Program-made: the position numbers and the translations under genes
Shown: positions 38,426-57,687 of the stretch, piece by piece
How positions within the stretch are numbered: the stretch's first letter is position 1
How the letters are laid out: each line of letters starts with the position of its first letter
NCBI GenBank assembly: GCA_963740035.1
Contig: CAVUDA010000012.1
Location: forward strand, 41,971 to 105,970
Source: an uncultured Acidobacteriota bacterium
GTDB taxonomy: Bacteria; Acidobacteriota; Terriglobia; Acidiferrales; UBA7541
DNA: 64,000 nucleotides
Reading direction: 5' to 3'
Notes under the pieces: generated by a model
What the model was told of the DNA's origin: nothing
Seen by the model: the letters and a program-made list of their open reading frames with translations, nothing else
The model's database searches: none

Positions 38426-38441
38426 TGTGATGCAGATCACG
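38426..38441. promoter_or_regulatory. CRP-type palindrome tGTGAtgcagaTCACg upstream of the DUF3300/DUF2950 genes
   Basis: Perfect GTGA-N6-TCAC core, about 270 nt upstream of ATG 38711, in non-coding DNA. Confidence 0.5.
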
Positions 38442-38710
38442 GAATTGCGGTCAAAACACCAGCAATCTCAAGTTGGCAATGGGAGCCTTGGGAGCAAGTA
38501 ATTTAAGTGCATTACTGCCAAGGACAATGTAACTGCATGCGATGAGAGAAGGGCCAGATGTCACTATTTTTCCGCTTTACCCCGTCATCGGGCTGTAGAG
38601 ATTCGGCCTGGTGATCGAAACTGCGAGCGGGAACCAACTTGAAATGTGTCCCACTCATCTACTGCAATGGAAGGCTTCGAGCGATGAAGGTGCGGAGGAG
38701 GTTCAATTCC

Positions 38711-39904
38711 ATGAAGATTTTCGGACGTGTCGTCAGTTGCTCAAAGCCTGGATTGGGCAGGCAAGCTTTGGTCACCCTGATGTCCCTGGCCCTATTGTTC
38801 GCCACATGGCCCCAGAATCTGTCGGCCTATCAAGACACTCAAGCTCCGGCGCAGACGACGCCCGCGCCTCCCTACACGCAGCAGACCCCGGAGCAATTGC
38901 AGCAGCTGGTAGCGCCAATTGCGCTGTATCCGGACTCGCTGGTGGCGCAAATTTTGGCAGCGTCCACCTTTCCCGAGCAAGTCGTCCAGGCAGACCGATG
39001 GGTGCAGGATCATCCTGATCTGAAGGGTGAAGCACTGGGTCAGGCCGTGGACCAACAACCTTGGGACCCAAGCGTCAAGGCGCTCACTGCATTTCCATCC
39101 GTCCTCGGAAATATGGACAAGAACCTGTCCTGGACGTCGTCTCTCGGCGACGCTTACTACAACCAGCAGCAGGCTGTGATGGATGCAGTGCAGGTGATGC
39201 GCCAGAAGGCGCAGCAGGCCGGCACCCTGCAGTCAACGCCGCAGCAATCTGTGACCTCGCAAGGCTCGACGGTCGTCATTCAGCCTGCTGCCCCCGATGT
39301 CGTTTATGTTCCTGCCTATGATCCTTGGCTGGTCTACGGGTATCCCATCGCACCGTGGCCGGGGTGGTACCCCTATCCCGGAATTTGGTATGGAGGTCCT
39401 TACCTTTCATTTGGAATCGGCTTTGGAATTGGCTTCTTCGGTGGTTTTGGATGGAGTTGGCCTTATTGGGGATTCGATTGGCACAACCGGTACCCAATCT
39501 TTAACCACAACAGGTACTACTCGCGGAGCACCACGTTTTACAATCGAAACTATTATTACCGGGGAGGAGGCGCACGCGGCGGATTTGTAGCCCGCCCGAG
39601 TCCCGGGAGCAGGCCTCCCGCCGGAAGCTTTGGCGGGCGCGGTGGGGTTTACAACCGTCCCGGCGGAACGACCAGGCCTTTCGAGGGAAACAACCAGGCT
39701 GCACGAGGATACGCGGAACCTCGCGGTCAGAGTGGAACCCACTCGGGTGCTTTCAGCGGCTACGGCCAGGGCGGACAGGCAAGGAGCTATTCGTCACGCG
39801 GAAGCGGGAGCATCGGCGGCGGGGCAACGCGCGGCGGAGGCGGTGGAGCGTCTCGCGGTGGCGGTGGCGGAGCACCTCACGGTGGCGGTGGCGGGCATCG
39901 GTAA
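38711..39904 (+). CDS. DUF3300-family secreted protein with Gly/Arg/aromatic low-complexity tail
   Basis: QLQQLVAPIALYPDSLVAQILAASTFPEQVVQADRWV...WDPSVKALTAFPSVL is the DUF3300 core. The C-terminal 170 aa or so are W/Y/G/F-rich, then RGG/GGGGG-rich. Confidence 0.8.
   Translation: MKIFGRVVSCSKPGLGRQALVTLMSLALLFATWPQNLSAYQDTQAPAQTTPAPPYTQQTPEQLQQLVAPIALYPDSLVAQILAASTFPEQVVQADRWVQDHPDLKGEALGQAVDQQPWDPSVKALTAFPSVLGNMDKNLSWTSSLGDAYYNQQQAVMDAVQVMRQKAQQAGTLQSTPQQSVTSQGSTVVIQPAAPDVVYVPAYDPWLVYGYPIAPWPGWYPYPGIWYGGPYLSFGIGFGIGFFGGFGWSWPYWGFDWHNRYPIFNHNRYYSRSTTFYNRNYYYRGGGARGGFVARPSPGSRPPAGSFGGRGGVYNRPGGTTRPFEGNNQAARGYAEPRGQSGTHSGAFSGYGQGGQARSYSSRGSGSIGGGATRGGGGGASRGGGGGAPHGGGGGHR
39827..39898 (+). repeat. 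3 x 24-nt imperfect tandem repeat encoding (T/S/P)(R/H)GGGGG(A/H)
   Basis: acgcgcggcggaggcggtggagcg / tctcgcggtggcggtggcggagca / cctcacggtggcggtggcgggcat at the 3' end of the DUF3300 gene. Confidence 0.7.
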
Positions 39905-39979
39905 TCGAGGTCTCGTAGGGGTGCGGGCTTTACTTGGAGATGGTTCGTATAACTTCCTTGCAGATCGTGACATTTAGAA

Positions 39980-40975
39980 ATGGAGAAAAGCCATATGCGG
40001 CGAATGAACCTGAATTCCCACAAATTTCATTTGGCCCGATTTTCCAAAATAGCCGCCATTGCCGTGCTTTTGACGGGATGCTTGCCCACCCGTTCGCTGG
40101 CGCAAGAACAGGGCCAGAAGACATTTTCATCGGCGGAGGACGCGAGCAACGCCCTCGTCACGGCGGCGCAGAATAACGACGAACAGGCGCTGCTCGATAT
40201 CCTCGGACCAGTTGAAAAGCGAGTCGTTTCGTCGGGAGACGAAACTGAGGACGCCCAAAGCCGCGCTAATTTTGTGCAGAAATATCAGGAAATGCACCGT
40301 CTGGTGAAAGAACCGGACGGGACCACCACGTTATATATCGGCGCGGAGAATTGGCCCACTCCCATTCCGCTCGTGAACAAAGGCAATTCGTGGTATTTCG
40401 ACACCGACGCGGCCGAGAAAGAAATCTTGTTCCGGCGGATTGGCCGGAATGAAATATCGACCATTCGCGTCTGTCAGGAGCTCGCGGCGGCGGAAAAGGA
40501 ATACTACTCCACACACCACAACGAGTACGCTCAGAAGATTTTCAGCGATCAAGGACAGCGCAATGGCCTGTATTGGAAGGCGGCGAATGGCGAACCTCAC
40601 AGCCCGATCGGGCCGCTCGTGGCAGCAGCCGATGCTGAAGGCTATGGCAGAAGCCGAAACGACGCACCGACTCCTTACCGCGGCTACTTTTACCACATCC
40701 TGACCAGTCAGGCGGGCAATGCACCCAGCGGCGCCAAAAGTTACATCGTAAACGGCAAGATGACTGAGGGTTTCGCTTTCGTGGCCTATCCGGCGGAATA
40801 CAGATCCTCCGGCGTAATGACATTCCTCGTCAACGAAAAAGGGGCAGTGTACCAGAAGGATCTGGGCAAGCAGACCGCTGCTCTCGCCAAGGCCATGAAG
40901 GAATACAACCCCGATTCCAGCTGGCAAAAAGCCGAAGATGAGCAGGTGACCGCCGGCACGCAAAAGACCAAGTAA
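39980..40975 (+). CDS. DUF2950-family secreted protein
   Basis: Signal/lipobox (LLTGC), then FSSAEDASNALVTAAQNND..ALLDILGP, YIGAENWPTPIPLV, GYFYHILTSQ, GFAFVAYPAEYRSSGVMTFLVN. This family is a usual partner of DUF3300. Confidence 0.8.
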   Translation: MEKSHMRRMNLNSHKFHLARFSKIAAIAVLLTGCLPTRSLAQEQGQKTFSSAEDASNALVTAAQNNDEQALLDILGPVEKRVVSSGDETEDAQSRANFVQKYQEMHRLVKEPDGTTTLYIGAENWPTPIPLVNKGNSWYFDTDAAEKEILFRRIGRNEISTIRVCQELAAAEKEYYSTHHNEYAQKIFSDQGQRNGLYWKAANGEPHSPIGPLVAAADAEGYGRSRNDAPTPYRGYFYHILTSQAGNAPSGAKSYIVNGKMTEGFAFVAYPAEYRSSGVMTFLVNEKGAVYQKDLGKQTAALAKAMKEYNPDSSWQKAEDEQVTAGTQKTK

Positions 40976-41107
40976 AGAAGATCATGTCGCTGCTTTACTT
41001 CGTCAAGACCTCATCCGCGTCCATTGACGAAACCCACAGAGAAGTTCCTGAGCCAGGATAGAGCCGAAAGTCATTAACCGAGTACTGTTGTGCGGCGTGT
41101 CGGGCGA

Positions 41108-41530
41108 TTACTTTTCCTGCAGAGCAGCCAGAAAATCGCAGAGGTTCCGGATGCGCTGCTGTGCGGATTTTTGATTGTAGTAGTATTCAAAAAGGGGCCC
41201 CCACATGGGCATATCGCCCGATCCGTGAGACGGAACACCGGGAGCAAATTGAAGAACTCCGGCGACATAGGCGTATGGAAACTTGCCGCCGTGACGCTTG
41301 GCCAGTGTCGTAAGATCCGGCGCGGGTTTCCTAAGCGCCTTTTTCACAGGGCCGTTACCCTTCGCATTAGCTCCATGACATGCGGCGCAATACTGTGTGT
41401 AGATCGCCGCGCCGGACGGGACATAGTCCGCCGGAAGTTGATTTTGATCCTGGGCTCGGGTCGCTCTGGTACCCGCGGCGCAGAGGACCAAGAGCATGGC
41501 AGCAAGCGGAAATATTCTGTGCGGAGCCAT
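41108..41530 (-). CDS. Class-I c-type cytochrome (paralog A)
   Basis: Signal peptide, CAACH haem motif, PDLTTLAKRHGGKFPYAYV, and MPMWG (Met ligand region). Confidence 0.85.
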   Translation of the reverse strand: MAPHRIFPLAAMLLVLCAAGTRATRAQDQNQLPADYVPSGAAIYTQYCAACHGANAKGNGPVKKALRKPAPDLTTLAKRHGGKFPYAYVAGVLQFAPGVPSHGSGDMPMWGPLFEYYYNQKSAQQRIRNLCDFLAALQEK

Positions 41531-41628
41531 TATTCCTCCAAGTTTCCATTCTGGTTTTCGCGGGAGCGCACTGTTTTTCCTCGTGGCGCGATCAATTGCC
41601 GGCAGGTTTTTTCCTTAAGTGCATTGTG

Positions 41629-42183
41629 TCAAGCGGGCTGTGACCCGATTGGCGATCCAGCACGGACGAGCACCACGGTTCTATCGGCAGCTCGAAGCAC
41701 TTTGTCGGCGACGCTCCCGTACACCCATCGGTTGATGCCAGTGCGGCCATGCGTGGTCATCACGATCCGATCGATTTTGTGTTTTCGCGCAAAATTGAGG
41801 ATCACCTCGGCTGGGACGCCCATTTCCACAGTGGCAGCCACCTTTACGTTCTTCCAGCCGGGGCGCGTGCAAATGCTTTCCAGATAGTGCATCGCATGGA
41901 TTCTCCGGTTCTCCCATTGCTGATCGATGGTGATTATTTCGCCATCGGAAATCACATCCTCTATGGGAGGGACCACGTGGAGGAGGATCACTCTCGACTC
42001 GGGCAGCTTCGCTAAAGCGAGCGCCTCAGGCAATGCAAGCTCTGCAAGAGTTGAACCGTCAAGCGGCACTAAAATGCTCTGACTCAATTGCATGGCTCCC
42101 ATGAGAATTGGTGATCGTCCCAGCCACTGGATGACGGTCGACCAGAAGCATAAAACAGCGACACCAACAATCCCTAACCTCAT
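41629..42183 (-). CDS. Universal stress protein with N-terminal hydrophobic segment
   Basis: Usp fold with ILVPLDGS...RIVMTTHGRTGINRWVYGSVADKVLRAADRTVVLV (G-x2-G-x9-G-S motif). ATG 42183 overlaps the TAA of the upstream OMP gene (TAATG). The 30-aa N-terminal extension is hydrophobic. Confidence 0.75.
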   Translation of the reverse strand: MRLGIVGVAVLCFWSTVIQWLGRSPILMGAMQLSQSILVPLDGSTLAELALPEALALAKLPESRVILLHVVPPIEDVISDGEIITIDQQWENRRIHAMHYLESICTRPGWKNVKVAATVEMGVPAEVILNFARKHKIDRIVMTTHGRTGINRWVYGSVADKVLRAADRTVVLVRAGSPIGSQPA

Positions 42184-43739
42184 TACTGACGCAACGAATT
42201 TGGACCGCTAGTAGCATTGATTCTCAACTGTTCCGGCGACGGGAGCTGCGCTACGTCCCAGCCGCCGCCCAGTGCCTTGATTAGATGGACGCTGGCGACC
42301 ATTTGCTGCAGGCGAAAGGTCACCGCGATTTGCTGATCGTTCAGCACAACCGTTTGGGCCGCGATCACGTTCAGGTAGGGATCGACGCCTGCCTCGTATC
42401 GCACAGTGGCTTCGTGCAAACTTCTTTGGGCCGATTGCACCGCGGCATCCTGCTGCTGAATATCCTGGGACAGGATTCTTACGGCCGCCAGATTGTCTTC
42501 CACTTGCTGGAACGCGGTCAATACGGTCTGGCGGTAATTTGCCACCGTCTGATCGTATGCGAATTGGGATTGTTGCAGGGCGGCTCTTCGCAGTCCCGCG
42601 TCAAAAATCGTTTCCGCAAGACTTGGTCCCACCGACCAGAATCGGCTCGGCCAGGTAAACCAATCCGCGATGGAAGCGCTGCCGAACCCGCCCGTCGCGC
42701 TCAAGGTGACATTCGGATAGTAGGCGGCTTTCGCTATGCCAATCTGCGTATTCGCTTGCGCCATCGCGCGTTCGGAGGCGGCGATGTCCGGACGGCGTTG
42801 GAGTAGATCGGCGGGGATGCCAGGAGGGATTGACGGAGGATTCGCATTCAGCGGCTCTACGGGAATAGAAAATGTCGATGCCGGTTCGCCCGCCAACAGA
42901 GCGATCGCATGCTCGTACTGCGCGCGTAGAACGCCGAGGTTCGTATCCTGCGCTTGTGTAGCTTCCAGTTGGGCTTCGGCTTGAGCGACCGCTTCGTCCG
43001 TTCCAATGCCGGCTTTGAATTGGACCTGGGTGAGATTCAGAGTTTCCCCATAGGCAATGACGGTGGTGTCAAAAAGCTGCTTCAAGGCATCCTGCGCGCG
43101 AAGCTGGTAATAGTCGGCCGCTAGCTCAGCCTCTACGGAGAGGCGCACATTTTCCAAGTCGGCGCCGCTTGCCTGGGCCGCATAGGTGGCCCCCCTCACC
43201 GTGTTGCGAACACGGCCCCACAAGTCGGGTTCCCAGGACGCGTCCGCGGGCAGCGAGTAATCGGTGAAGGAAGAGAGAGTGAATCCTGAGGTCGAAGAAC
43301 TTCCCGAGTGCACCCCGCCAAACTGGCCCGCCGAAGGGCGCGCATTCATGATGCTTGGATTCGTTGCGACCGTCGGAAAATATTGCGAGCGCGCTTCCCG
43401 GATGACGGTGCGGGCGGCAAAGAAATTCGCAACCGCAGCAGCGATTTCCTGGTTTGAAGTATCCGCCTTTTCTTCAAGCGCATTCAGCTGAGAGTCATGG
43501 AAGACGTCCCACCACTTTCCACGAGCCGCGCCGTCGCTCGGCTGGGCTGCTTTCCATTGTTCGGTCTGCGTATGATCCCCGGCAGCAAGCTCCTTGTAAG
43601 CTGAAGGAGTTTGCACCGGCGGCCTCGCGTACTTCGGACCCACCGTGCATCCGGCCAGGAGGAGCATCCAGACCGCGCAGGCTGCCAAGGCCCCTTGCGT
43701 CATATTCGGTTTTGTTCGGCGCCACATTTCAATTCTCAC
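42183..43739 (-). CDS. Outer-membrane efflux lipoprotein (NodT/TolC family)
   Basis: Lipobox LLLAGC, GPKYARPPV, and two TolC-like repeats. Possible starts are GTG 43739 (overlapping the HlyD stop), ATG 43727 and ATG 43703. Confidence 0.85.
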   Translation of the reverse strand: MRIEMWRRTKPNMTQGALAACAVWMLLLAGCTVGPKYARPPVQTPSAYKELAAGDHTQTEQWKAAQPSDGAARGKWWDVFHDSQLNALEEKADTSNQEIAAAVANFFAARTVIREARSQYFPTVATNPSIMNARPSAGQFGGVHSGSSSTSGFTLSSFTDYSLPADASWEPDLWGRVRNTVRGATYAAQASGADLENVRLSVEAELAADYYQLRAQDALKQLFDTTVIAYGETLNLTQVQFKAGIGTDEAVAQAEAQLEATQAQDTNLGVLRAQYEHAIALLAGEPASTFSIPVEPLNANPPSIPPGIPADLLQRRPDIAASERAMAQANTQIGIAKAAYYPNVTLSATGGFGSASIADWFTWPSRFWSVGPSLAETIFDAGLRRAALQQSQFAYDQTVANYRQTVLTAFQQVEDNLAAVRILSQDIQQQDAAVQSAQRSLHEATVRYEAGVDPYLNVIAAQTVVLNDQQIAVTFRLQQMVASVHLIKALGGGWDVAQLPSPEQLRINATSGPNSLRQ

Positions 43740-44818
43740 TCACCGATGAATACGTCTACCAATTCGCCTGGATAAAGGTACGTTTTTTCTGTCTTCTCAA
43801 TTCTAAATATGACGGGCAGCACTCTGACGTCCACCCGCTCGGTCCTCTGGTTGGAAAGCTCGATCTTCGGTGAGACGAACGGCTGCATCCTCACGTAGTC
43901 GAGGGCCAGCTTCGTGCCCGACCCGCGAATCGACATTTGTGCCTTCATCTTGTTTGGCGCGGGGAGGCGATGGACGAGAATTTCATCGACGTAGCAACGC
44001 ACGTTCAAGAACCCCTGCAGGCTACCGAGCACCATCACCGGAATCATGCTCTGCGTGTAGCTGTCGTAGGAGCCCTGCGGTGATACGAAACTACCAGCCG
44101 TCGGATTGATGGAAAGCACCATGCCGTCCCTTGGTGCGCGAAGCGTGTACTTGGAAAGCAGGGCGCTCGATGCCAGGTAGGATTTTTGCAATGCGTTTTG
44201 CTGGCGTTCCTGATTGGCGACGTCGTAGGACCAGGCTCCCGCTTTGGTCAGGTCATATTGTTTCTGAGCCACTGCCAGGTTGGCTTTCGCCACCGCGGCC
44301 GCGTTGAATGAACTGTCCAAGGCATCCTTGCTGATGGACTTCGGATCCATTTCGTAAGAAGCTTGCAGCTTGGCCAGCGCGTCCTCCGCGGTCTTGAGTG
44401 TTGCTTTCGCCGCTTCGACCTGGGACTCTGCGATCTCAAGGTTCTCTTTCCTCGGCTCTGCCTTTAGCTCTTGAAGCAGCGACCACGCAGCCTGCGCCTG
44501 CGATTGCAGCTGTTCGCTGGTCGCACTCTGAACGGAATCATCGATTAACACCAGCGCATCACCTTTGTGCACCACCTGCCCCTCGGCGACAAGAATTTGC
44601 TTCACGGTTCCGGGAACTTCCGGATACACATTGATGTTTTCGCCGCTGGCCTGATCGCTTTCCACAATGCCTTCCGCATAGATGCCGTTGGCATAGGGGT
44701 CCGAGAATGGTTGAAAAACAGGCGGGAGCGGCGGATTCGTAATACCGAAAAGGTAAGCAGCCGTCGCCCCGGCGATAATGCCGGTGATGGCGAGCGTAAA
44801 TAGAATTTTATTTTTCAT
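43736..44818 (-). CDS. HlyD/DevB-type membrane fusion protein
   Basis: ATG 44818 (MKNKILFTLAITGIIAGATAAYLF), lipoyl-like VKQILVAEGQVVHKGDALVLID, and a coiled coil. The ATGA overlaps the ATPase stop. Confidence 0.85.
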   Translation of the reverse strand: MKNKILFTLAITGIIAGATAAYLFGITNPPLPPVFQPFSDPYANGIYAEGIVESDQASGENINVYPEVPGTVKQILVAEGQVVHKGDALVLIDDSVQSATSEQLQSQAQAAWSLLQELKAEPRKENLEIAESQVEAAKATLKTAEDALAKLQASYEMDPKSISKDALDSSFNAAAVAKANLAVAQKQYDLTKAGAWSYDVANQERQQNALQKSYLASSALLSKYTLRAPRDGMVLSINPTAGSFVSPQGSYDSYTQSMIPVMVLGSLQGFLNVRCYVDEILVHRLPAPNKMKAQMSIRGSGTKLALDYVRMQPFVSPKIELSNQRTERVDVRVLPVIFRIEKTEKTYLYPGELVDVFIGE

Positions 44819-45516
44819 GCCGCCCTCTCTTGTGTCCCCGTGATCCGGCCGTCTTCCATCTTCAAGATCCGGCTGGCGAATTCGTAGATTCTGCTGTCGT
44901 GCGTGACAACCACGATGCAGCGATTGGCGTCGAGAATGTTCTCGCGAACGAACTGCAAAATGGCATGTCCCGTATCGCCATCCAGGGAAGCGGTCGGTTC
45001 GTCCATGATCAGGATGTCCGGCTTTCCAATCATGGCGCGCGCGATGGCCACTCGTTGCTGTTCGCCTCCGCTGAGTTTCATGGGAGGGAGGTCTGCACGC
45101 GCCTTGAGCCCGACGATATCCAAATAGTGGATCGCTTCCTGGATGGAGGTATCCCACGGCGCTTTTTTGAGGATCAGCGGAATCGCTACATTCTCCGCAG
45201 TGTTCAGGCGCGGAAAGAGGTGGAAATCCTGAAATACGAAGCCGAGTTTGTGAAGGCGGAAATCCGCCAGATGATTGCTATCGAGAGTCCAGATGTCCGT
45301 TCCGTCCGCCAGAACGTGGCCGGAGTTGGGCCTGAGAATCCCCGAGAGCACGCTCAGCAGCGTCGTCTTGCCGCTTCCCGACGGCCCCACGATGTAGATC
45401 ATTTCACCGAAATCCGCGTGGAGATCGACGCCGCGGAGAGCCAGGGTCTTGGCGTCTCCCTCGCCAAACCATTTCTCGAGCCCGCTCGCTTCTATGGCTG
45501 TGCGCGGCATATTCAT
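44815..45516 (-). CDS. ABC transporter ATP-binding protein (DevA/MacB-NBD/LolD type)
   Basis: GPSGSGKTTLL, LSGGEQQRVAIARA, ILIMDEPTASLD. The ATGA overlaps the permease stop. Confidence 0.9.
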   Translation of the reverse strand: MNMPRTAIEASGLEKWFGEGDAKTLALRGVDLHADFGEMIYIVGPSGSGKTTLLSVLSGILRPNSGHVLADGTDIWTLDSNHLADFRLHKLGFVFQDFHLFPRLNTAENVAIPLILKKAPWDTSIQEAIHYLDIVGLKARADLPPMKLSGGEQQRVAIARAMIGKPDILIMDEPTASLDGDTGHAILQFVRENILDANRCIVVVTHDSRIYEFASRILKMEDGRITGTQERAA

Positions 45517-46649
45517 CCCCTGAAAATCTCGAACGGCTCGATCCGCAGCACCCTGCGGATGCCCGCGTAGCTGGAGACGGCGTCAATGATGAGAACCATC
45601 ACCAACGCCAGCAGAAGATTGGTGTAAGTGATCGTGGCGAAGTAACTCGGCAGCCTCAGCTTGGCCAGATAGATAAACAAGGTGCACAGGCCGACTCCCA
45701 GTCCGTAGCCGGTCAGAGCGGTGAACGTGGCCTGGAACAAGATCATTTCGACGAGCTCGCTGTCTCTCGTGCCCAGCGCTTTCAGAGCTCCAAATCTTTC
45801 CAGATTCTCCAAAATGAACGTGTAGAACGTCTGGCCCGAAATAGAAAGTCCCACAGCGAACGTAATGATGGTCATGATCAACAGGTTGGTTCCCATCCCG
45901 GTTTGGTAGATGTAGAACATAATGCTCCGCATCGTGAACTCATCCTTGGTGAGCGCCAGGTAACCGAGCGCCGCCACTTGCTGCTTTATTTTCGGTATAT
46001 CGCTCGGACTTTTCGGTTCAACGAGGACATAGGACGCCGTGTAGCGCGGATTGGGAACGTATTGAACGGCCCGCGTGTAGGTGGTGTAGAGAGTCGGAAG
46101 GCCGAACAAGCTGGACATTGCGACTCTTGCTGTCCCAACAATGACGCAGCGGTGGTCGTTCAGCTGAAATTCCGAGCCAACATGAGGACTATTGAGTTTG
46201 GGATAATCCGCGTCCTGAACAACAATGAAGCCGTTCTCCGCGTAGATGTCGGTGATGTTTCCGTCGATCATCTCCGGACGACCAAACAAGCTGGTGTCGT
46301 CCAGGCCAAGCACGCTCGTCGCCTGGTAGTTACCGTCGGGGAGCTTCACGAGAGCCGTACTCGAATAGAGCGGGACGGCGTAGGCGACGCCCTGCATGCT
46401 CCGGACCGCGTCCAGGACGTAATCAGGCATGCCAATCGAATTCGCCGGAGTCTGCACGGCCGGATCCATCACCCACACCGTGGCGCCGACATTGATGACC
46501 GTGGAGGAGGAATGACGCAGGACTCCGACAAACATCGCCGTAATGAAAATCATCGAGAAAGAGGCAAAAGCAATCCCCACCAGCAGGGCCGTGAACTTTG
46601 CCTTGTCATTCACCAACAGTTTGTAGGCGAGTTTAAGAATTCCACTCAA
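45513..46649 (-). CDS. ABC exporter permease (DevC / FtsX-like)
   Basis: N-terminal TM, a large periplasmic domain, and three C-terminal TMs (FtsX fold). MSGILKLAYKLLVNDKAKFTALLVGIAF is DevC-like. Confidence 0.8.
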   Translation of the reverse strand: MSGILKLAYKLLVNDKAKFTALLVGIAFASFSMIFITAMFVGVLRHSSSTVINVGATVWVMDPAVQTPANSIGMPDYVLDAVRSMQGVAYAVPLYSSTALVKLPDGNYQATSVLGLDDTSLFGRPEMIDGNITDIYAENGFIVVQDADYPKLNSPHVGSEFQLNDHRCVIVGTARVAMSSLFGLPTLYTTYTRAVQYVPNPRYTASYVLVEPKSPSDIPKIKQQVAALGYLALTKDEFTMRSIMFYIYQTGMGTNLLIMTIITFAVGLSISGQTFYTFILENLERFGALKALGTRDSELVEMILFQATFTALTGYGLGVGLCTLFIYLAKLRLPSYFATITYTNLLLALVMVLIIDAVSSYAGIRRVLRIEPFEIFRG

Positions 46650-46723: not shown

Positions 46724-46739
46724 TGTGATCGACGTCACT
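46724..46739. promoter_or_regulatory. CRP-type palindrome tGTGAtcgacgTCACt upstream of the devC operon
   Basis: Perfect GTGA-N6-TCAC core, centred about 80 nt upstream of ATG 46649. Confidence 0.55.
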
Positions 46740-46855
46740 GGTAATCGTGACTGTCCTCACACACGAAGAACCATTGCGGTTGGGTCAGGATAACGAATAG
46801 AAGTTGGCACGCATCAGCCGTATCCCCAAGCGGTTGAGCGGTTGACGGCATTGTT

Positions 46856-46994: not shown

Positions 46995-47309
46995 CTAACT
47001 TGCCGGCTCCTGCGCCTTCGTCCTGCCGGCTGCTTCACGCCGGGCAATTACGGCCTCGCTCAGCTTCTGCTGGCCCTGGTCCACCAGTTCATGCATCCGC
47101 ATGCGCGCTTGCCGAACTTTCGCATTGGCGGCATCGACGCCGTCCAGGCACTTCGCTTCGATCCATTCTCTCGTTTCCGCACCCGATTTTGGGGCCAGAA
47201 ACACGCTGAGCGCGGCCCCGATCCCTAAACCCGCCACCAAGAAGGCAAATGCCGCCCCATGACTTTTGGATTCCATTTTTTCATTTTGATTTTCCGTTTG
47301 GTTTTTCAT
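46995..47309 (-). CDS. YtxH-domain general-stress protein
   Basis: ATG 47309 with a gggaggaag RBS. TM helix AAFAFLVAGLGIGAALSVFLAPKSG, then the amphipathic helical region typical of YtxH. Confidence 0.7.
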   Translation of the reverse strand: MKNQTENQNEKMESKSHGAAFAFLVAGLGIGAALSVFLAPKSGAETREWIEAKCLDGVDAANAKVRQARMRMHELVDQGQQKLSEAVIARREAAGRTKAQEPAS

Positions 47310-47448
47310 TTCTTCCTCCCTACGCTCGTTCGCACTGCCCTTGGCCTGGCAAATGCAAACTGCCGCCGATGGGTATCGTGAGTTGCTTTTCAATGAAAAG
47401 CCTAATCTGCATTCGACTCCGGCCGCCATGCTCTGCCTCACCTTGCAA

Positions 47449-47464
47449 CGTGATGTCAATCACA
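47449..47464. promoter_or_regulatory. CRP-type palindrome cGTGAtgtcaaTCACa upstream of ytxH
   Basis: Perfect GTGA-N6-TCAC core, about 145 nt upstream of ATG 47309. Confidence 0.5.
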
Positions 47465-47658: not shown

Positions 47659-48990
47659 CTAGAGCATTGAAGGATACGTCTCGGGGACCTCGCCGGTCTC
47701 CCAAGCCGCGGTTCGCTCGAGAGGCTCAACGGCGCGAGTCTCGTCGTAGTGCAGAATGGCGTCGAACTGTTCCGGGAGCTGAGCGTGGAAGTAGTGGCTC
47801 ATACGCTCGGATCGAGGAAGATAGATGACACCAATGGCCCGCTCCAGACGTGGTTCCCGCAAGAGAGAGGTGGCTTTTTCTTTATGGCCGAGTGGAAGCA
47901 GGAAATTCCGGATTCCGGTTTCGTGGAAAAGCGCCTCGTAACTCCCGGCTAGTGCCGGCCGAACATGTTTGCGTTCTGCAGCCGCTTCCCAACCCGATGC
48001 TGCGGTGACCGTGCCGGTGTACGTCGTGAATCCGACGAGCGTCGCTTCTTTTCCGTAGCGCTGGCGGACAAGTTGTCCGAGATTGAGCTCTCCGCGTTGT
48101 CCCATTTCGGTGGCGCGAGCATCACCCAGGTGAGAATTGTGCGCCCAGACGACGATCTTTGCCTTGGGGCCGAGCTGGTGAGTCAACGCTTCCAACGTCT
48201 CGGCCATATGGGTGTCTCGCAGATTCCAGGAGGAAATTCGTTCGTGAAACATCGAGCGGTAATACTCCTCGGCATTTTTCACCAATCGGGCATTCTGTTC
48301 CGCAAAGAAGAATGCATCCCGGGCGACGCGGCCATCGCGGTTTGCCAGATCGGCAGCGCGCCGGCGCATTTCCGTCCACTGGCCAACAACTTCATTCTCG
48401 CAGCTCTTGCTAAGACCGAAGCTGGCGGCATAACCGTATGCTTGAGTATCTTCACCGAAGTTGTCGAAGCAGGCGTAGCGATACCGCGCGCGTTGCGCAG
48501 CCTCAGGATCCACTTTGTCCAAGAAATCCAACACTGCCTGCATGGAAGTATGCAAGCTGTAGAGGTCCAGCCCATAGAAACCGACCCGCTTGGAATGCCG
48601 GTGCTCATTGTAATTCCGCAGCCAACCTACAAAATCGAGAACATCTGCGTTGCGCCACATCCAGGCGGGAAATCTTTGGAAGCCCGCAAGCGCGTCGATC
48701 GCATCTTCGTCTTCACCCTCAAAGCGCACAAATTGATTGACGCGATATGCGTCCGGCCAATCTGCTTCTACCGCGACCGCGGTGAATTCTTTTTCCGCGA
48801 TCAAGCGCTTGGTGATCTGCGCGCGCAGGCGATAGAACTCGTGGGTTCCATGCGAAGCCTCTCCAATCAGAACGAACCGGGAGTCGCCAATCATTTTGAG
48901 CAAAGGATCGAAATCCGTGGTTTCCCCCGTAAGCGGATGTGCCGCTTGGCGAATCGCGTGAACAAGATCGTGTTCGTGTCTTGAGATCAT
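47659..48990 (-). CDS. Erythromycin-esterase-family (PF05139-like) protein
   Basis: RFVLIGEASHGTHEFYRLRAQITKRLIAEKEFTAVAVEADWPDA...VVWAHNSHLGD matches the family's conserved blocks. Confidence 0.8.
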   Translation of the reverse strand: MISRHEHDLVHAIRQAAHPLTGETTDFDPLLKMIGDSRFVLIGEASHGTHEFYRLRAQITKRLIAEKEFTAVAVEADWPDAYRVNQFVRFEGEDEDAIDALAGFQRFPAWMWRNADVLDFVGWLRNYNEHRHSKRVGFYGLDLYSLHTSMQAVLDFLDKVDPEAAQRARYRYACFDNFGEDTQAYGYAASFGLSKSCENEVVGQWTEMRRRAADLANRDGRVARDAFFFAEQNARLVKNAEEYYRSMFHERISSWNLRDTHMAETLEALTHQLGPKAKIVVWAHNSHLGDARATEMGQRGELNLGQLVRQRYGKEATLVGFTTYTGTVTAASGWEAAAERKHVRPALAGSYEALFHETGIRNFLLPLGHKEKATSLLREPRLERAIGVIYLPRSERMSHYFHAQLPEQFDAILHYDETRAVEPLERTAAWETGEVPETYPSML

Positions 48991-49079
48991 TTCACACCTC
49001 GATCAATGCAACTTAGCCAGGCACTTCGATCCAGAGCTCATTTTCAACGCCTCTATGCTTGAAACACTCCGACCGCCAA

Positions 49080-49775
49080 TCATTGCCGTGTTCCCTTCGA
49101 CGCGACCTGAGTATCCAGATTGTGCGTTTCGTGGCGCCATCGGGAAGCCGCATCGAGCAGTTCTCTTACTTCCTCGTCCGATACTTGCGAGAAGTCAGCG
49201 TAAAATTGTCCGACTCCATAAAACGGCTGTGGCATCTCCAGGCACACAAGTTCGTCCGCCTCAAATCGGAGCTGATTGCAAGTGGAAGGCGGGGCGACAG
49301 GAACTGCCACAACGATCTGTGCAGGTTTCATTTGACGCAGCGCACGAATGGCAGCCTTCATAGTCGCGCCCGTGGCGACACCGTCATCGACAAGAATGAC
49401 GGTCAAGCCACCTACGTCCAGCGGAGACTTCCCGCCCCGATATGCTCGTTCGCGGCGTTCAAGTTCCTTTTCTTCTGCCCTTGTCACTCGCTGGATATCT
49501 AACCCGGTTATTCCCAAGCCCTCAACGATATCCCGGCTAAGTATTCGAACTCCTCCGCTCGCGATTGCGCCGAATGCCAACTCCTCGCGGCCTGGAACAC
49601 CGAGTTTGCGCAATACGAACACGTCCAAGGGCGCCCTGAGTTCCTTGGCAATCTCGAAAGCGACTGGAACGCCTCCGCGTGGCGCTCCGAGTACAATAAC
49701 ATCACCCCGATTTCCGTATTTCCTTAGGCGCAGCGCCAGCATTTGACCTGCTTCTTTGCGATTTGCAAATGTCAT
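49080..49775 (-). CDS. Phosphoribosyltransferase-domain protein
   Basis: ATG 49775 (MTFANRKEAGQMLA). PRPP-binding loop VILVDDGVATGATMKAA. This is the type commonly paired with erythromycin-esterase-like genes. Confidence 0.8.
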   Translation of the reverse strand: MTFANRKEAGQMLALRLRKYGNRGDVIVLGAPRGGVPVAFEIAKELRAPLDVFVLRKLGVPGREELAFGAIASGGVRILSRDIVEGLGITGLDIQRVTRAEEKELERRERAYRGGKSPLDVGGLTVILVDDGVATGATMKAAIRALRQMKPAQIVVAVPVAPPSTCNQLRFEADELVCLEMPQPFYGVGQFYADFSQVSDEEVRELLDAASRWRHETHNLDTQVASKGTRQ

Positions 49776-49845: not shown

Positions 49846-49883
49846 AGTGAGACCAATCACATTTCGGAGTGAGGGGAGTCACA
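49846..49883. promoter_or_regulatory. Two tandem CRP-type palindromes (aGTGAgaccaaTCACa and aGTGAggggagTCACa), centres 22 bp apart
   Basis: Both cores are perfect (49846-49861 and 49868-49883). They lie in the divergent intergenic region between the PRTase operon (start 49775, minus) and the LPKTAS-protein gene (start 50170, plus). Confidence 0.6.
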
Positions 49884-50169
49884 AGCCACGATGTGCCGCC
49901 TGCCCTAGTAGCTTCGCCATAAATGCGAGCCTAGAACGCCTGGCGCGCTCCTGAATAGCGCGTGTCACAGGAGAAAGATGATGAATAGGCGATGATGGGA
50001 GTGTTTCGCGCCGGTGACGCGGACCACTTGCAGTTGTGCGCGCGGTCACATACCCAAAAGCGGGACGCGAGTACACGTATAACAGGTACGAACGGAGCCG
50101 ATACAAGAGACGTAAGGGCGGGCCGAACTTGGGAGCTGGCATCCGTCGTCACAATCAGGAGGCAGGAAA

Positions 50170-52542: not shown

Positions 52543-52623
52543 ACGAGCAGAGCCCACCGGAATGTCCAGAGTTCAAGCAACAGACAGCTATTCTAGCTCT
52601 CTATGATGTAAACCACATCCTTG

Positions 52624-52639
52624 CGTGATGTAGAACACT
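52624..52639. promoter_or_regulatory. Imperfect CRP-type site cGTGAtgtagaACACt upstream of cytochrome c paralog B
   Basis: One core mismatch (ACAC instead of TCAC). About 80 nt upstream of ATG 52715. The left half is identical to the ytxH site (cGTGAtgt). Confidence 0.35.
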
Positions 52640-52714
52640 GAGATTGACTCGCACTGGCAGCAACCTAATTGTGGGGCAGGGTAGTTAGAGTTAGAACCTG
52701 TCCGGGAGGAAAGT

Positions 52715-53194: not shown

Positions 53195-53268
53195 TTGTAC
53201 TTTGGTTTGAATGGACGCACTGCAGTCAATCAGACTAAAGCACGGAAAGTTTCACTTGGAGGCCCTTG

Positions 53269-54777: not shown

Positions 54778-55027
54778 AAGTGCGCTGGGATTCTAGTTCC
54801 TTCCTGCGACGCAAGTAAGGAGCGGTCAAACTTAGACCCCCGATGAGGAACGTCTTTTCCCCAGATCACGAAAGGGATCGAAACCGCGCGAACCGCCTGC
54901 TCGAAAATGCAAAAAAAACCTGCCTCGTGGTCCGCTCCATTAACAGCAAAGTGATCTTGGAGCAGAAAGTCATTGTGGAAGAAGAAGTCCTTGAGCGTGA
55001 AAAAATGGGGAATTCGATCCCGATCAG

Positions 55028-55234
55028 CTAAGCGTCTGCTAGTACCTTTGCCCATCTTTGTGGGTCCCCGGCTCTGATTCTGGTCGCGTCGAACAACGGG
55101 AATGTGAGCAAACGCCGGCCCGCAGTTTTAAATGCATCGTTGATTGCTTGCCGAAGCTCTTCATGCGGAACCTTCACTTCCGACTCAGCTGATGGTTTCA
55201 TATTCCGGCATGTAATCTGCAGTTCGGATTTCAT
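55028..55234 (-). CDS. HPF/RaiA-like ribosome-hibernation-factor remnant (too short; probably internally deleted)
   Basis: MKSELQITCRNMKPSAESE resembles the HPF N-terminal strand. VKVPHEEL..AINDAFKTAGRRL resembles the HPF C-terminal strand and helix. At 68 aa, the middle of the fold is missing. Confidence 0.35.
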   Translation of the reverse strand: MKSELQITCRNMKPSAESEVKVPHEELRQAINDAFKTAGRRLLTFPLFDATRIRAGDPQRWAKVLADA

Positions 55235-55630
55235 GGCGGCACCTCGCGCTCGCGTTATAGCTCGAATAGTTTGATCAGTGATTTTATTGCTGTCAGCTTT
55301 TCAATCTCCCTGGAATCCTTATTGGCCGCTCGCGCCACACGCCATCCTCCTCATGCTTGAGGTTGTAAATGTGAAGCAACCGCTATCCCGCGTCGAGAAG
55401 GCGGTTGACTTCCTCTCGGCCTCGCGCCTCCAGGTTGTGCCCGGTAAGTTCGACGATATCCAGTTGCCGTTGCGAATCAAAATACCCTTCATTTCCGTCT
55501 TATGTACATCACATGCGCCCAGGGGGGACAGCGACCCGAGTCACAGATCGCAGCAGACGAAAGAACTCCAAAGGGCTTGTCAATTCGTTACACGAATTGC
55601 AGCTCTTGGGCTGGTGGCGAGGGTGATGCC

Positions 55631-55936
55631 TTGAAGATACTGCTAGCAATTGATGGTTCCGAGTTTTCCCAGGCAGCAATGCAAGCTGTCATTTCTCAGA
55701 TGCGCTCCGAGGGCGCCGGGGTCCTCGTCCCGCGGGTGGCAGAACCACGCGTATTTATTACTCCGCCGCAAATGGCACCGGGATATGCGCCCGAGCAGGA
55801 CGAAATTCTTAAGGAAGATATTCGCCACGCAAAGGAATTGGTGAACCAAGCGAGACAAGTACTCGGGTCCGCCGGCTTCTGCGCGAGCACGCGCGTTGTT
55901 GAGCGAGGTAGGAGGAGCCTCAAAGTAGCTCTTTGA
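55631..55936 (+). CDS. Universal stress protein, C-terminally truncated
   Basis: TTG 55631 gives MKILLAIDGSEFSQAAMQAV..., a typical Usp start. The ORF stops after about 101 aa, before the G-x2-G-x9-G(S/T) nucleotide-binding motif. The stop codon sits inside a perfect 11-bp hairpin. Confidence 0.5.
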   Translation: MKILLAIDGSEFSQAAMQAVISQMRSEGAGVLVPRVAEPRVFITPPQMAPGYAPEQDEILKEDIRHAKELVNQARQVLGSAGFCASTRVVERGRRSLKVAL

Positions 55937-56055
55937 GGCTCCAGCACAGGCAGGCTGCTGAACGCGGAAACACGGAGGAAAGTGATTGTGGAGTGAAATA
56001 AGAGTTCTTCAATGCCAGCGTATGGATCCTGCAATTCCAGTTATGTGTATGCCGC

Positions 56056-56460
56056 TTAGGCTGCCGCATGGTATGCCTTACGGGAGCAGGTCGTTTCCTC
56101 AAGGGCCGACCAGATAATCGTCTCCGCTTCCACCGGATTCGGTGGACAAACGATAAAACCAAGTGCGCCGGCTCCAAGGACTTTTAGGTAAGAATCCCAA
56201 TCGGTGGAATGCGAAAGCACGATGACTGGCGCGTGAACCATTGATTTCTTCACTTCTCTCAAGACCACATGAAAATCACCGTCGGCCAGAATGTCCCTGC
56301 ACAGCACTAATCGAAATTCCTCTTGGGGCAATAAAGTGCGCGCTTCTTCCAAGTTGGAGCAGCAGATCGGATTCAATCCGCACTTGAGGGCTGAAGCGGC
56401 AATCCTTTGCCGGTCTTCTCCCTGGTTGCAGATAATTAGGGCAAGTTCGATGTTCGGCAT
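56056..56460 (-). CDS. Receiver-domain-like protein (possibly a pseudo-receiver)
   Basis: CheY-like alpha/beta pattern (LALIICNQGED...FRLVLCRDILADGDF...VIVLSH...LGAGALGFIVCP). The acidic pocket and phospho-acceptor region are non-canonical, and there is no output domain. Confidence 0.55.
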   Translation of the reverse strand: MPNIELALIICNQGEDRQRIAASALKCGLNPICCSNLEEARTLLPQEEFRLVLCRDILADGDFHVVLREVKKSMVHAPVIVLSHSTDWDSYLKVLGAGALGFIVCPPNPVEAETIIWSALEETTCSRKAYHAAA

Positions 56461-56497
56461 TGCTCCTCCTCGTCATCGCCGATCTTTATGCCCATTC

Positions 56498-57214
56498 CTA
56501 CAGGTTCGCGCAGCTTTCCAGAGCTGAGCGATTCGAGATCATGAGCGTCGATCCCTGAATGGTAACCAGATGGCGTACCTTGAAATCGCTCAAGGTGCGC
56601 GTGACCGTCTCGCGAGTGGTGCCGATGAATTCCGCGATTTCCTCGTGCGTCAGGGGCAGCTTGATTCGCGTGCCCTCTTTCGTCTGTTGAATTCCTTCCG
56701 ACCACGTCAGCAAGAGGCGCGCGAGTTTTTCCTGCGCGGAGGCCGAGAGTCCGATCGTGTGCAATTGTTCGCAGGCGCCCCGGTACTGAGAACTCATCTG
56801 CTTCACCGCGTTTTGAGAGGCTTCGGGATGGCTTCCCAGGAAGCGCAGGAAGTCTTCCCGGCGCACAAAGGCGACCTGGCAGGGGTGGATCGTCTCGGCC
56901 GTCACTTCATAGGGCAGGCCCGCCATGGCGGCCATCAGTCCGAGCAGTTCTCCTGCCCGGGCAATCCTCATTATCAGGGTCTTGCCTTCCGGTGAGCTGA
57001 TGGAAAGTTTTACTTCGCCTTCGCACAGCACGTAGACCCCGCGTGCGTCCTGTCTTTCGACGAACAGCAGGGCGCCCTTTGGATAGGTGGCCGTCGACTT
57101 GATCGCATCAAAGTCCTTTACCGCGGAGGGCGGCAACTGGCAGAAGAATCCTGAGCCTTTCACCTTGCAATTCTTGCAACCATCGTTCAGCTCTAATCCG
57201 TATGGACCTTTCAT
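56498..57214 (-). CDS. Crp/Fnr-family transcription regulator with Cys-rich N-terminus and CRP-type recognition helix
   Basis: cNMP-binding-like beta-roll (GALLFVERQDARGVYVLCEGEVKLS) and HTH THEEIAEFIGTTRETVTRTLSDF. RETVTR parallels E. coli CRP RETVGR. The N-terminus carries C-x2-C-x9-C (CKNCKVKGSGFFC). Confidence 0.9.
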   Translation of the reverse strand: MKGPYGLELNDGCKNCKVKGSGFFCQLPPSAVKDFDAIKSTATYPKGALLFVERQDARGVYVLCEGEVKLSISSPEGKTLIMRIARAGELLGLMAAMAGLPYEVTAETIHPCQVAFVRREDFLRFLGSHPEASQNAVKQMSSQYRGACEQLHTIGLSASAQEKLARLLLTWSEGIQQTKEGTRIKLPLTHEEIAEFIGTTRETVTRTLSDFKVRHLVTIQGSTLMISNRSALESCANL

Positions 57215-57229
57215 TGTTGCCTCCTCAGC

Positions 57230-57580
57230 TTAGTATTCAGATCTCGTGCGAATGCCCTGCTGCGCTTCTTCCGCGAAATGTTTCGTGAGCGGCGTGTCGG
57301 CCAGGAAGTCGGCCCCCGATTCGGCATGAATGTCAGCCAGCAAATCACGGCCTGTTCCGTCGATACGCGTCACCCCTCGAACGTCCACCAGAAGCTTTCT
57401 TTCTCCAAGGGAAGGGGCCAAAACCTGCCACGCTTGCTGCAGCGCTGGAACAGTGGGGCCGACGATCTTCCCTTCGATCTTCATGGTTACGCCCTCACCG
57501 TCCGCTTGGTGTATCGTCACTCTCACTGGTTCTCTTGATCCTTTGTTGTAACGCCTACCTATAGGCAATCCAGGAGCCAA
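57230..57580 (-). CDS. STAS-domain protein (anti-sigma-antagonist-like)
   Basis: VTMKIEGKIVGPTVPALQQAW...LLVDVRGVTRIDGTGRDLL follows the SpoIIAA/STAS pattern. The start is uncertain (TTG 57580, or the GTG about 57 nt downstream). Confidence 0.5.
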   Translation of the reverse strand: MAPGLPIGRRYNKGSREPVRVTIHQADGEGVTMKIEGKIVGPTVPALQQAWQVLAPSLGERKLLVDVRGVTRIDGTGRDLLADIHAESGADFLADTPLTKHFAEEAQQGIRTRSEY

Positions 57581-57671
57581 ATCTCTGATCCGAGGGAGAG
57601 TAGAGGTATCCCATTCTGGAACAATGGCTTAGTTGGGATGGGTGGTTTGTGTGGGCTAGCGCACAGGTCTA

Positions 57672-57687
57672 AGTGACGAAGATCACT
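57672..57687. promoter_or_regulatory. CRP-type palindrome aGTGAcgaagaTCACt upstream of the STAS-crp-receiver operon
   Basis: Perfect GTGA-N6-TCAC core, 90-150 nt upstream of the operon's first ORF. This suggests autoregulation. Confidence 0.55.

Follow-up and report, generated by a model that had tools for sequence, protein, structure and literature searches.

The present analysis deals with short palindromes of the form GTGA-N6-TCAC in a 64-kb stretch of contig CAVUDA010000012.1 from an uncultured bacterium of the Acidobacteriota (the whole stretch is called the window below), where they are located on a genomic island that also encodes a regulator of the Crp/Fnr family. The motif is a genuine one, and the comparison of related genomes links it to the Crp/Fnr family of the island. 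With a probability of approximately 0.7, we regard the palindromes as operators of the island regulator or of near-identical paralogues, which are usually arranged in tandem and would serve class II activation and define a stress regulon together with a crp operon driven by a sigma-54 promoter. The motif, its tandem arrangement and position, its co-occurrence with the regulator in both search directions and the residue patterns were observed directly, while binding of the regulator, the sign of regulation and the signal sensed are inferred.

An exhaustive scan of the window detected seven perfect copies of GTGA-N6-TCAC (at 38427, 46725, 46747, 47450, 49847, 49869 and 57673), as compared to 0.64 copies expected per window from dinucleotide-preserving shuffles, none out of 100 of which contained seven or more. 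An initial annotation of this DNA had listed six perfect palindromes and claimed a strong excess. All six were found again, with coordinates that had included one flanking base, and the excess stands, but the copy at 46747 had been missed, which forms the second half of a tandem 22 bp after 46725. The single-mismatch site that had been reported at 52624 is present at 52625 and has a partner at 52603. When one mismatch is permitted, 37 matches exist in the window against approximately 19 expected ones, among them 52625 and the pair 50014/50036. The seven perfect sites span only 38.4-57.7 kb and are all intergenic after the correction of two open reading frame (ORF) calls. Every motif copy lies within a 21.4-kb segment, which is bounded by a tRNA-Leu gene and a 22-nt repeat of the 3' end of this tRNA; the 42.6 kb scanned outside 37.9-59.3 kb contain no perfect site, as had been stated before for those intergenic regions beyond the island that had been read. 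The probability that all seven sites fall inside the segment by chance is approximately 0.33^7, i.e. about 5e-4.

Homologues of the regulator were found by the thousands, the closest of them (80-90% identical) in metagenomes of Acidobacteriota (Terriglobia). Starting from the regulator, 41 loci with 10-kb flanks each were taken from species-representative genomes, and these 816 kb contain 154 perfect sites, corresponding to approximately 12 per 64 kb. The comparison of intergenic and coding density, which the initial annotation had named as a check, gave 0.86 perfect sites per kb in intergenic DNA of these loci and 0.043 per kb in coding DNA, a difference of approximately 20-fold. Furthermore, in a census of all 256 four-base arms with spacers of 0 to 12, GTGA-N6-TCAC ranked first among the intergenic palindromes, with 131 copies in intergenic and 29 in coding DNA, and the runner-up TCAC-N8-GTGA represents the junction of two adjacent sites. 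The sites are kept upstream of orthologous genes across regulators sharing 54-99% identity. In the opposite direction, metagenome contigs were scanned for the 36-bp tandem pattern described below, which resulted in 120 stretches with 700 kb, many of them only 1-3 kb long. A regulator homologue (41-56% identical) is encoded on 28 of the 120; the cysteine motif CxxC-x8-C and the recognition helix RETVTR are present wherever the matching region lies on the contig, and several of these crp homologues are placed 130-160 bp downstream of a tandem unit. The motif co-occurs with the Crp/Fnr family of the island regulator in both search directions.

Among the metagenome hits, the low-GC contigs L042, L047, L080, L083, L097 and L153 (GC 0.34-0.50) contain several to a dozen close-set pattern matches. 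The hits on L047 and L153 were rejected as operators: they are 22-bp satellite arrays in repeat-rich DNA with a unit of approximately GTGAGTCATGTCACACGTATGA, situated amid AG/CT microsatellites and other tandem repeats, and eukaryote-like by impression. Two regulator copies from typical loci stem from metagenome-assembled genomes with labels of other phyla (L005, Verrucomicrobiia, 97% identical; L019, Saccharimonadales, 87% identical), for which mis-binned acidobacterial contigs are the likeliest explanation.

In most cases, the operator consists of two sites in tandem that together span 36 bp, their centres being exactly 22 bp apart. Starting from 161 perfect sites, a partner at exactly +/-22 bp was found with 0, 1 or 2 mismatches in 36, 31 and 47 instances, respectively, while the other offsets from 14 to 60 bp gave at most 2 perfect partners (at 29 bp), 1 partner with one mismatch and 8 with two mismatches (at 31 bp). 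The lone palindrome, which had initially been taken as the unit, has to be given up, because partners at this very distance are specifically enriched. A weight matrix for the tandem was built from other genomes only and then applied to the window, with 30 random windows as null. It found six units scoring 25.7-31.7 bits, compared to a null maximum of 13.4 bits, and nothing prominent in the window outside 38-58 kb. In total, the window contains six tandems, besides one site that stands alone and another one that has decayed (Table 1). The would-be partner of the single site at 38427 has four mismatches, and a CAATCT hexamer follows this site 22 nt downstream; the decayed site at 55531 is the orthologue of a site that is perfect in the related locus L001. 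The extended consensus in the related loci is W-GTGA-Y-N4-R-TCAC-W with an uninformative centre. Since 22 bp correspond to about two helical turns, two dimers would occupy the same face of the DNA.

The regulator comprises a cNMP-binding-like beta-roll and a C-terminal HTH_Crp_2 domain according to Pfam (PF00027, 2.6e-17; PF13545, 1.3e-19; PF00325, 3.1e-11), and its best relatives in the PDB are CRP of M. tuberculosis, GlxR, FNR, NtcA and CAP. The previously noticed parallel between its RETVTR helix and R180/E181/R185 of E. coli CRP is well founded, as R201, E202 and R206 align with these residues and are nearly invariant: they are conserved in 133, 130 and 134, respectively, of 138 distant relatives (less than approximately 65% identical). 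Such an R-E-x3-R helix fits GTGA half-sites with N6 spacing. The FNR-type recognition helix E-x2-S-R and TTGAT-N4-ATCAA boxes are absent, with RETVTR and GTGA boxes found instead. The designation CRP-type used in the initial annotation is appropriate for the DNA-reading residues, but not with regard to cAMP: all five cAMP-contact residues are replaced (E72L, R82Y, S83E, T127A, S128C), and the replacements represent the consensus of the family. Judged from these residues, the protein is not a cAMP-type CRP and is predicted not to sense cAMP. It did not reach any NCBIfam equivalog cut-off (CRP 55.3 bits versus 266; Fnr 51.6 versus 228). Among the 138 relatives, 63 share the whole set of C13, C16, C25 and C64, and the first three were never found without C64; this strict covariation suggests that the four cysteines form a metal, iron-sulfur or thiol redox centre with a sensory role.

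The genes that recurrently bear a unit in the relatives code for Hsp20, single and tandem universal stress proteins (USPs), HPF-CSD (a ribosome-hibernation-factor domain fused to a cold-shock domain), a P-type cation ATPase, OsmC, a fusion of HAD phosphatase and HerA-like ATPase, an ACT-domain protein, a sigma-54 activator and the STAS-crp operon. Together with the phosphoribosyltransferase (PRTase)/erythromycin esterase, the cytochromes c and the efflux system of the window, this target set looks like a stress-survival, and by analogy a hypoxia or dormancy, regulon. When the tandem units were oriented toward their downstream genes, a -10-like hexamer (NANNNT) was found to begin 22 nt downstream of the proximal site in 66 of 196 units; counted by target family, it is present at this distance in 24 of 52. 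At 23 nt, 30 more units have it. Control offsets gave mostly about 10 units and 2-4 families, and at most 30 units and 9 families. Examples are TAGCCT at the devC-like operon of the window (22 nt past the proximal site of the 46725/46747 tandem), TAGGCT at its ytxH gene (23 nt past the proximal site of 47428/47450), GAAAAT (PRTase), CAATGA (HPF-CSD) and TAGAAG (tandem USP). No conserved signal for a -35 element exists beside or within the sites, and the flanks outside the core hold 0.02-0.35 bits. If the hexamer is assigned to -12 to -7, the centres of the two sites fall at -41.5 and -63.5, the former being the class II activating position for CRP and FNR. Hence, a -10-like hexamer at 22-23 nt without any -35 element makes class II-type activation most likely, and the island sites would be arranged in the activator geometry of class II CRP/FNR promoters. 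In many cases, the hexamers are found on both sides of a unit, facing divergent genes (e.g. L004 17305).

The regulator gene itself belongs to a STAS-crp operon. A STAS-like gene is located in front of crp in 37 of 40 loci, and a receiver-like gene lies downstream of crp in the window and 10 related loci. Upstream of the operon, the element TGGY-N7-[TA]TGC is found in 34 of 41 sources with GG and TTGC as the only invariant positions, which is the GG-N10-GC (-24/-12) pattern of a sigma-54 promoter and not of coding sequence; promoters of this type have their upstream sites at a distance of approximately 80-150 nt. In all loci, this element recurs at the STAS-crp operon only, and other intergenic matches are single and situated at unrelated genes. 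A perfect GTGA site is centred 99.5-100.5 nt upstream of the sigma-54 element in 26 sources, and the window sites 57651/57673 are centred approximately 104 and 126 nt upstream of the inferred sigma-54 start. Autoregulation, which the initial annotation had suggested from the box in front of the regulator's own operon, gains weight from a site that is conserved at a fixed position. Moreover, the 16-bp palindrome TGACGA-N4-TCGYCA occurs once per locus and exclusively at the STAS-crp promoter. In 27 loci, the gene of a sigma-54 activator with three PAS domains, AAA+ and HTH_8 ends 24 bp before the site, and a Crp unit is also present at this activator gene. The PAS domains of the activator are similar to those of the heme-PAS oxygen sensors FixL (E ~1e-17) and DosP (E ~1e-11), and the proximal His is aligned in each of the three repeats. 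In the activator of L002 (7247-9505) and its orthologues in the 27 loci, the three near-identical PAS repeats contain this His within FRQAHPG, FRQTHPA and FRHTHPA, and the distal Arg of FixL is apparently replaced by Leu. The activator may be a one-component heme-based gas sensor. An intact copy was not found in the window, in which the Pfam-scanned ORFs (not every ORF of the left 38 kb) contain no Sigma54_activat domain; a C-terminal remnant is left next to the palindrome. The distant homologues with approximately 50% identity (L054, L059, L074, L084, L096, L098 and others) have a tandem 130-160 bp upstream of crp, and in those loci (L054, L059 and others) crp is preceded neither by a STAS gene nor by a sigma-54 promoter. 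Several contigs with such distant homologues (L094, L102, L108 and others) carry two Crp paralogues approximately 0.9 kb apart, the second of which has CxxC-x8-C as well and a tandem unit approximately 25 nt from its inferred start.

The mechanism that we propose starts with two regulator dimers bound to the same face of the DNA, one per site of the 36-bp tandem. The regulator would respond to a redox or oxygen-related signal via its four-Cys centre and most likely activate sigma-70-type promoters in a class II manner, and the same unit would often drive two divergent promoters. The STAS-crp operon, for its part, would be transcribed from the sigma-54 promoter, which in most relatives the adjacent enhancer-binding protein with its three FixL-like heme-PAS domains would drive, while the tandem sites approximately 104 and 126 nt upstream would give feedback on STAS-crp, as in the case of MrpB/MrpC of Myxococcus. 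Since only a remnant of the activator is left in the window, the island copy would have to rely on a paralogue that is encoded elsewhere in the genome.

Several points weigh against this interpretation. The sites cannot be assigned to any single Crp paralogue, and at the regulator's own promoter they occupy the place where sigma-54 activators bind. A -10 hexamer at 22-23 nt exists in only a third to half of the oriented units, and in the HAD/ATPase promoters a TACAAT is found as well, only 5 nt beyond the proximal site, which would be compatible with repression. Within the regulator, the spacing C13-x2-C16-x8-C25 differs from C-x2-C-x5-C of FNR, and C112, at the position of CRP C92/FNR C122, is present in only about half of the 63 four-Cys members. 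It must also be mentioned that gene starts and -10 elements were inferred from the sequence via a home-made gene caller, and that the related loci are phylogenetically linked, so that raw counts overstate independence, which is why per-family counts were used.

Among the alternatives, the one that survives best assumes that the sites are mainly read by another family member elsewhere in the genome, encoded at a paralogous locus or being a global CRP, with the island copy as a redundant or decaying passenger. Five related metagenome-assembled genomes (MAGs) possess two loci with regulator-family Crp copies each. Both copies are 97-99% identical to that of the window in two of the five MAGs and 77-93% in the other three, and in four of the five an activator-less locus like that of the window stands beside an activator-containing one; both kinds carry the motif. 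The window locus also shows decay if compared to L001, i.e. the USP gene is 3'-truncated, the HPF-CSD gene is lost, OsmC is reduced to a remnant and the site at 55531 is degraded. The sigma-54 promoter of the window has no intact activator beside it, only the truncated one. Nevertheless, the island crp ORF is intact, 97-99% identical to the copies of the relatives and still equipped with its promoter elements, and six high-scoring tandems have been maintained on the island. We consider it unlikely that the island copy is a mere passenger; the island looks like a rearranged and partly decayed mosaic of regulon modules. The same findings bear on the initial idea of a self-contained regulon, which could not be upheld: a sigma-54 promoter combined with an activator remnant, and coexisting Crp loci in the MAGs, make self-containment unlikely, and the island probably shares its regulator pool and the sigma-54 activator with a second locus.

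The regulator could also be a repressor, whose tandem covers the -35 region or the spacer of constitutive promoters that are de-repressed under stress. The proximal site indeed overlaps the -35 position, the TACAAT hexamer of the HAD/ATPase promoters would suit this assumption, and MrpC exerts negative autoregulation at a similar sigma-54 promoter (PMC10701913). On the other hand, no -35 hexamer is conserved next to or within the sites; the -10 hexamers are weak (TAGCCT, GAAAAT, CAATGA), as usual for activator-dependent promoters, and the fixed offset of 22-23 nt corresponds to the classical activating position of -41.5. As a general explanation repression thus appears improbable. In the unit shared by the HPF-CSD and HAD-HerA-like ATPase genes (L002 11400, L004 11402, L006 11399 and others), the near-consensus TACAAT is located on the ATPase side, which has a CAAA(A/C)T hexamer at 23 nt besides; such a unit might repress one promoter while activating others.

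According to a third alternative, the tandems are upstream activating sequences for the PAS-AAA+-HTH_8 sigma-54 activator, two dimers of which would nucleate the hexamer. This assumption draws on the fixed distance of 99.5-100.5 nt between the perfect site and TGGY-N7-TTGC at STAS-crp, on the neighbourhood of the activator gene in 27 loci and on the general knowledge that tandem inverted repeats are typical of sigma-54 activators. However, sigma-54-type promoters recur at STAS-crp only, whereas the other units show the -10-like hexamer at 22-23 nt, and several window units have their proximal centre approximately 80 nt from the start codon, which is too short for an upstream site plus a sigma-54 promoter. 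In addition, no intact activator was found in the window, TGACGA-N4-TCGYCA as a palindrome unique to the STAS-crp promoter is available as activator site, and the GTGA half-site with N6 is exactly what the R-E-x3-R helix predicts. Sigma-54 activator sites were hence rejected as the identity of all palindromes save at the regulator's own promoter, and for the whole set this alternative is very unlikely.

Finally, a non-regulatory repeat (a REP/MITE-like element or recombination sites) spread through the island can be dismissed as highly improbable: a different extragenic palindromic repeat exists in related loci, yet it is unrelated to GTGA-N6-TCAC, whose conservation is limited to the 4+4 core and one flanking position with a freely varying N6, whose copies share no extended flanking homology, and which keeps fixed positions relative to -10 hexamers and gene starts upstream of orthologous genes. 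The repeat of the relatives is a palindromic element of approximately 90 bp built on the hairpin CACAGGCT-TC/GA-AGCCTGTG; it often occurs as an inverted pair approximately 46 bp apart and resembles a REP/MITE-type element of these Terriglobia. In the window it is absent save for one chance coding match at 4084.

The sites, the genes around them and the borders of the island are summarized in Table 1. The greedy longest-ORF caller mis-assigned several genes, including those for USP, sortase, ABC ATPase and ytxH, and a codon-usage-scored caller was used instead.

Table 1 Positions of predicted operators, promoter elements, genes and borders in the window, and of a repeat in related loci.
Feature	Position	Strand	Details
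tRNA-Leu(tag)	37829..37912	+	ARAGORN; last 22 nt (37891-37912) are the left copy of the direct repeat
Single site GTGATGCAGATCAC	38427..38440	.	Upstream of DUF3300-DUF2950; weight matrix 17.6 bits
DUF3300-DUF2950	38639-40975	+	Pfam
Operon of MacB/DevC-like permease, ABC ATPase, HlyD, outer-membrane factor, USP and cytochrome c	41108..46649	-	Pfam, gene calls
Tandem operator 46725+46747	46725..46760	.	Two perfect sites; 31.7 bits
YtxH-like gene	46995..47309	-	Start corrected to ATG with ribosome-binding site GGGAGGAAG
Tandem operator 47428+47450	47428..47463	.	ATGCTCTGCCTCAC (2 mismatches, proximal) and perfect GTGATGTCAATCAC; 26.5 bits
PRTase and erythromycin-esterase operon	47659..49775	-	Pfam; probable PRTase ATG at 49775
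Tandem operator 49847+49869	49847..49882	.	Two perfect sites; proximal to PRTase operon; 31.1 bits
Tandem operator 50014+50036	50014..50049	.	One mismatch per site; upstream of 221-aa/VWA/sortase operon; 25.7 bits
Operon of 221-aa protein, VWA protein and sortase	50170-52542	+	Pfam, NCBIfam
Tandem operator 52603+52625	52603..52638	.	2 + 1 mismatches; upstream of two cytochrome c genes; 25.7 bits
Two cytochrome c genes	52715-53194, 53266-53703	+	Pfam
Tandem USP gene	53908-54777	+	After cytochrome c pair; Pfam
OsmC remnant	54843-55031		62-aa ORF, weak OsmC C-terminal match
USP gene, 3'-truncated	ORF 55502-55936		By deletion relative to L001
Decayed single site GCGACCCGAGTCAC	55531..55544	.	Upstream of 3'-truncated USP gene
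Receiver-like protein, Cys-rich	56056..56460	-	Without acidic pocket or conserved Lys
Crp/Fnr-family regulator, 238 aa	56498..57214	-	C13-x2-C16-x8-C25, C64, C112; helix R201-E202-T-V-T-R206
STAS-like protein, first operon gene	57230..57484	-	Probable ATG 57484; ORF reaches 57580
Sigma-54-type promoter TGGCTCCTGGATTGC of STAS-crp operon	57565..57579	-	TGGY-N7-TTGC
Tandem operator 57651+57673	57651..57686	.	GTGGGCTAGCGCAC (2 mismatches) and perfect GTGACGAAGATCAC; 27.5 bits
Palindrome TGGCGATTAATCGTCA	57687..57702	.	Abuts distal site; candidate sigma-54 activator binding site
C-terminal remnant of PAS-AAA+-HTH activator	57713..57881	-	Residues ~695-752, last ~58 codons; tblastn
Right copy of 22-nt direct repeat GGTTCGAGTCCCTTCTTCCGCA	59298..59319	+	Att-like border; then tig-clpP (trigger factor by Pfam)
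Hairpin element of ~90 bp (related loci)	L004 18845/18891; L007 14240/14286, 15386/15432, 18060/18119		Also in L011, L016, L018

A perfect 22-nt repeat of the end of a tRNA gene is what the integration of an element at such a gene classically leaves behind, and the island of the initial annotation has thereby obtained its borders. No integrase or other mobility gene was detected by Pfam in the border ORFs, even at E <= 1, and the base composition of the island is barely deviant (GC 0.55-0.57 inside versus 0.57-0.60 outside). GC falls to 0.52 only at 57-59 kb, the right island end (57000-59300), where the ORFs 58006-58631 and 58938-59478 gave no Pfam match; this end may be the decayed mobility end of the element. 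The right-hand repeat is absent from L039, a locus with a tig-clpP flank like that of the window. The left 38 kb of the window harbour ordinary metabolic genes, and the ORFs scanned in this part yielded neither a Crp protein nor a sigma-54 activator.

The gene list of the initial annotation is supported by Pfam, save that ytxH is present on the minus strand and not on the plus strand. The operon at 41108-46649 is situated downstream of the 46725/46747 tandem. The 221-aa protein ends with an LPKTAS signal, a hydrophobic helix and a basic tail, the VWA protein is of the Acidobacteria type (TIGR03436), and the sortase scores just below the cut-off for 'LPxTATN-specific class D'; the three genes together resemble a dedicated sortase system, here in a Gram-negative phylum, and are preceded by a tandem operator with one mismatch per site. 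Small cytochrome c genes are present on the island in three paralogous copies, one at 41108-41530 (minus strand) in addition to the adjacent pair, whose copies have an 81-nt stretch with 75% identity in common (repeat D1).

Compared with known systems, the island belongs to a familiar type, namely the low-oxygen or stress regulons of the Crp/Fnr family that cluster with the gene of their regulator. The design resembles E. coli CRP (PDB 1CGP and others) with its TGTGA-N6-TCACA operator in R180/E181/R185, the GTGA-N6-TCAC core with T/A before and Y after it, and a centre that is here predicted near -41.5; in contrast, the cAMP-contact residues are absent, and the tandem at -41.5/-63.5 is the rule here and the exception there. 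At whiB1 of M. tuberculosis, two CRP sites are 21 bp apart, at one promoter and not as a regulon-wide design. Anr/Fnr boxes read TTGA. The lxa (low-oxygen-activated) locus of Burkholderia cenocepacia contains, at 17 intergenic points, a 4-bp inverted repeat with a 6-bp spacer that is ascribed to an FNR/Anr-like regulator; the locus is likewise a cluster of USPs, alpha-crystallin/Hsp20, cation ATPase and regulators, and its gene content overlaps the DosR regulon (PMC3721108). The TGA-N6-TCA core given for lxa is likened to Anr/Fnr boxes (PMC3721108), while the island half-site is GTGA, and the island system differs from lxa in its 22-bp tandems, Acidobacteriota host, tRNA/direct-repeat borders and sigma-54/heme-PAS tier. 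In rhizobia, FixLJ-FixK2 also places a heme-PAS O2 sensor above an autoregulated Crp/Fnr output regulator with palindromic boxes at class II promoters of microoxic genes (PMC9104804; general knowledge). There, however, a kinase and a response regulator take part, whereas here the FixL-like PAS domains are fused directly to the sigma-54 AAA+ activator, and, unlike FixK2, the island Crp protein has the four-Cys motif and a paired GTGA-N6-TCAC box. The arrangement of an activator gene adjoining a Crp/Fnr gene with a sigma-54 promoter is also found for MrpB/MrpC of Myxococcus xanthus, where MrpC positively regulates the activator gene and binds sites overlapping the two upstream sites of MrpB (PMC10701913); motif and sensory inputs are different, and a STAS-like gene precedes crp here. 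With the mycobacterial DosR regulon, the targets share USPs, alpha-crystallin, a P-type ATPase, a ribosome-hibernation factor and the PRTase/erythromycin-esterase type of Rv2030c, which belongs to that regulon (PMC4410610), but its regulator is a NarL-type response regulator with another motif, so that only the physiology is analogous. Unusual are the regulon-wide, often bidirectional 22-bp tandem operators, the heme-PAS sigma-54 tier and the carriage on a tRNA-bounded island, and also, as predicted from its residues, a four-Cys family with CRP-type specificity that would not bind cAMP.

Acidobacteriota are among the most abundant soil bacteria, and their transcriptional regulation is almost unstudied. 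In the literature that was searched, no description of a Crp/Fnr regulon or operator was found for Acidobacteriota. An induction of usp genes by up to 56-fold at 0.1 uM O2 has been reported for Acidobacterium capsulatum, with no regulator named (PMC11636273). The present analysis supplies a regulator family, a 36-bp operator, a promoter geometry and a target list, which are testable in the cultured Acidobacteriaceae bacterium KBS 146 (L038), whose regulator homologue is 54% identical and whose locus contains five perfect sites in 20 kb. Exactly spaced tandems, which are used regulon-wide and at divergent promoters, bear on the question of how Crp/Fnr proteins can act as higher oligomers, and the tRNA-bounded island, which carries the regulator together with its operators, illustrates how a regulon can travel as a whole. 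More tentatively, and rather doubtful at present, the whole could be regarded as a horizontally mobile 'plug-and-play' hypoxia/dormancy cassette of Acidobacteriota. In it, a four-Cys (Fe-S or thiol) regulator would occupy the bipartite 36-bp operator as a dimer of dimers, the operator would act as a compact, bidirectional class II core, and a one-component heme-PAS sigma-54 activator would close a feedback loop. If this is true, the cassette would control, as a master switch, the response of USPs to low oxygen in abundant soil Acidobacteria and would represent a fused, sigma-54-based counterpart of FixLJ-FixK.

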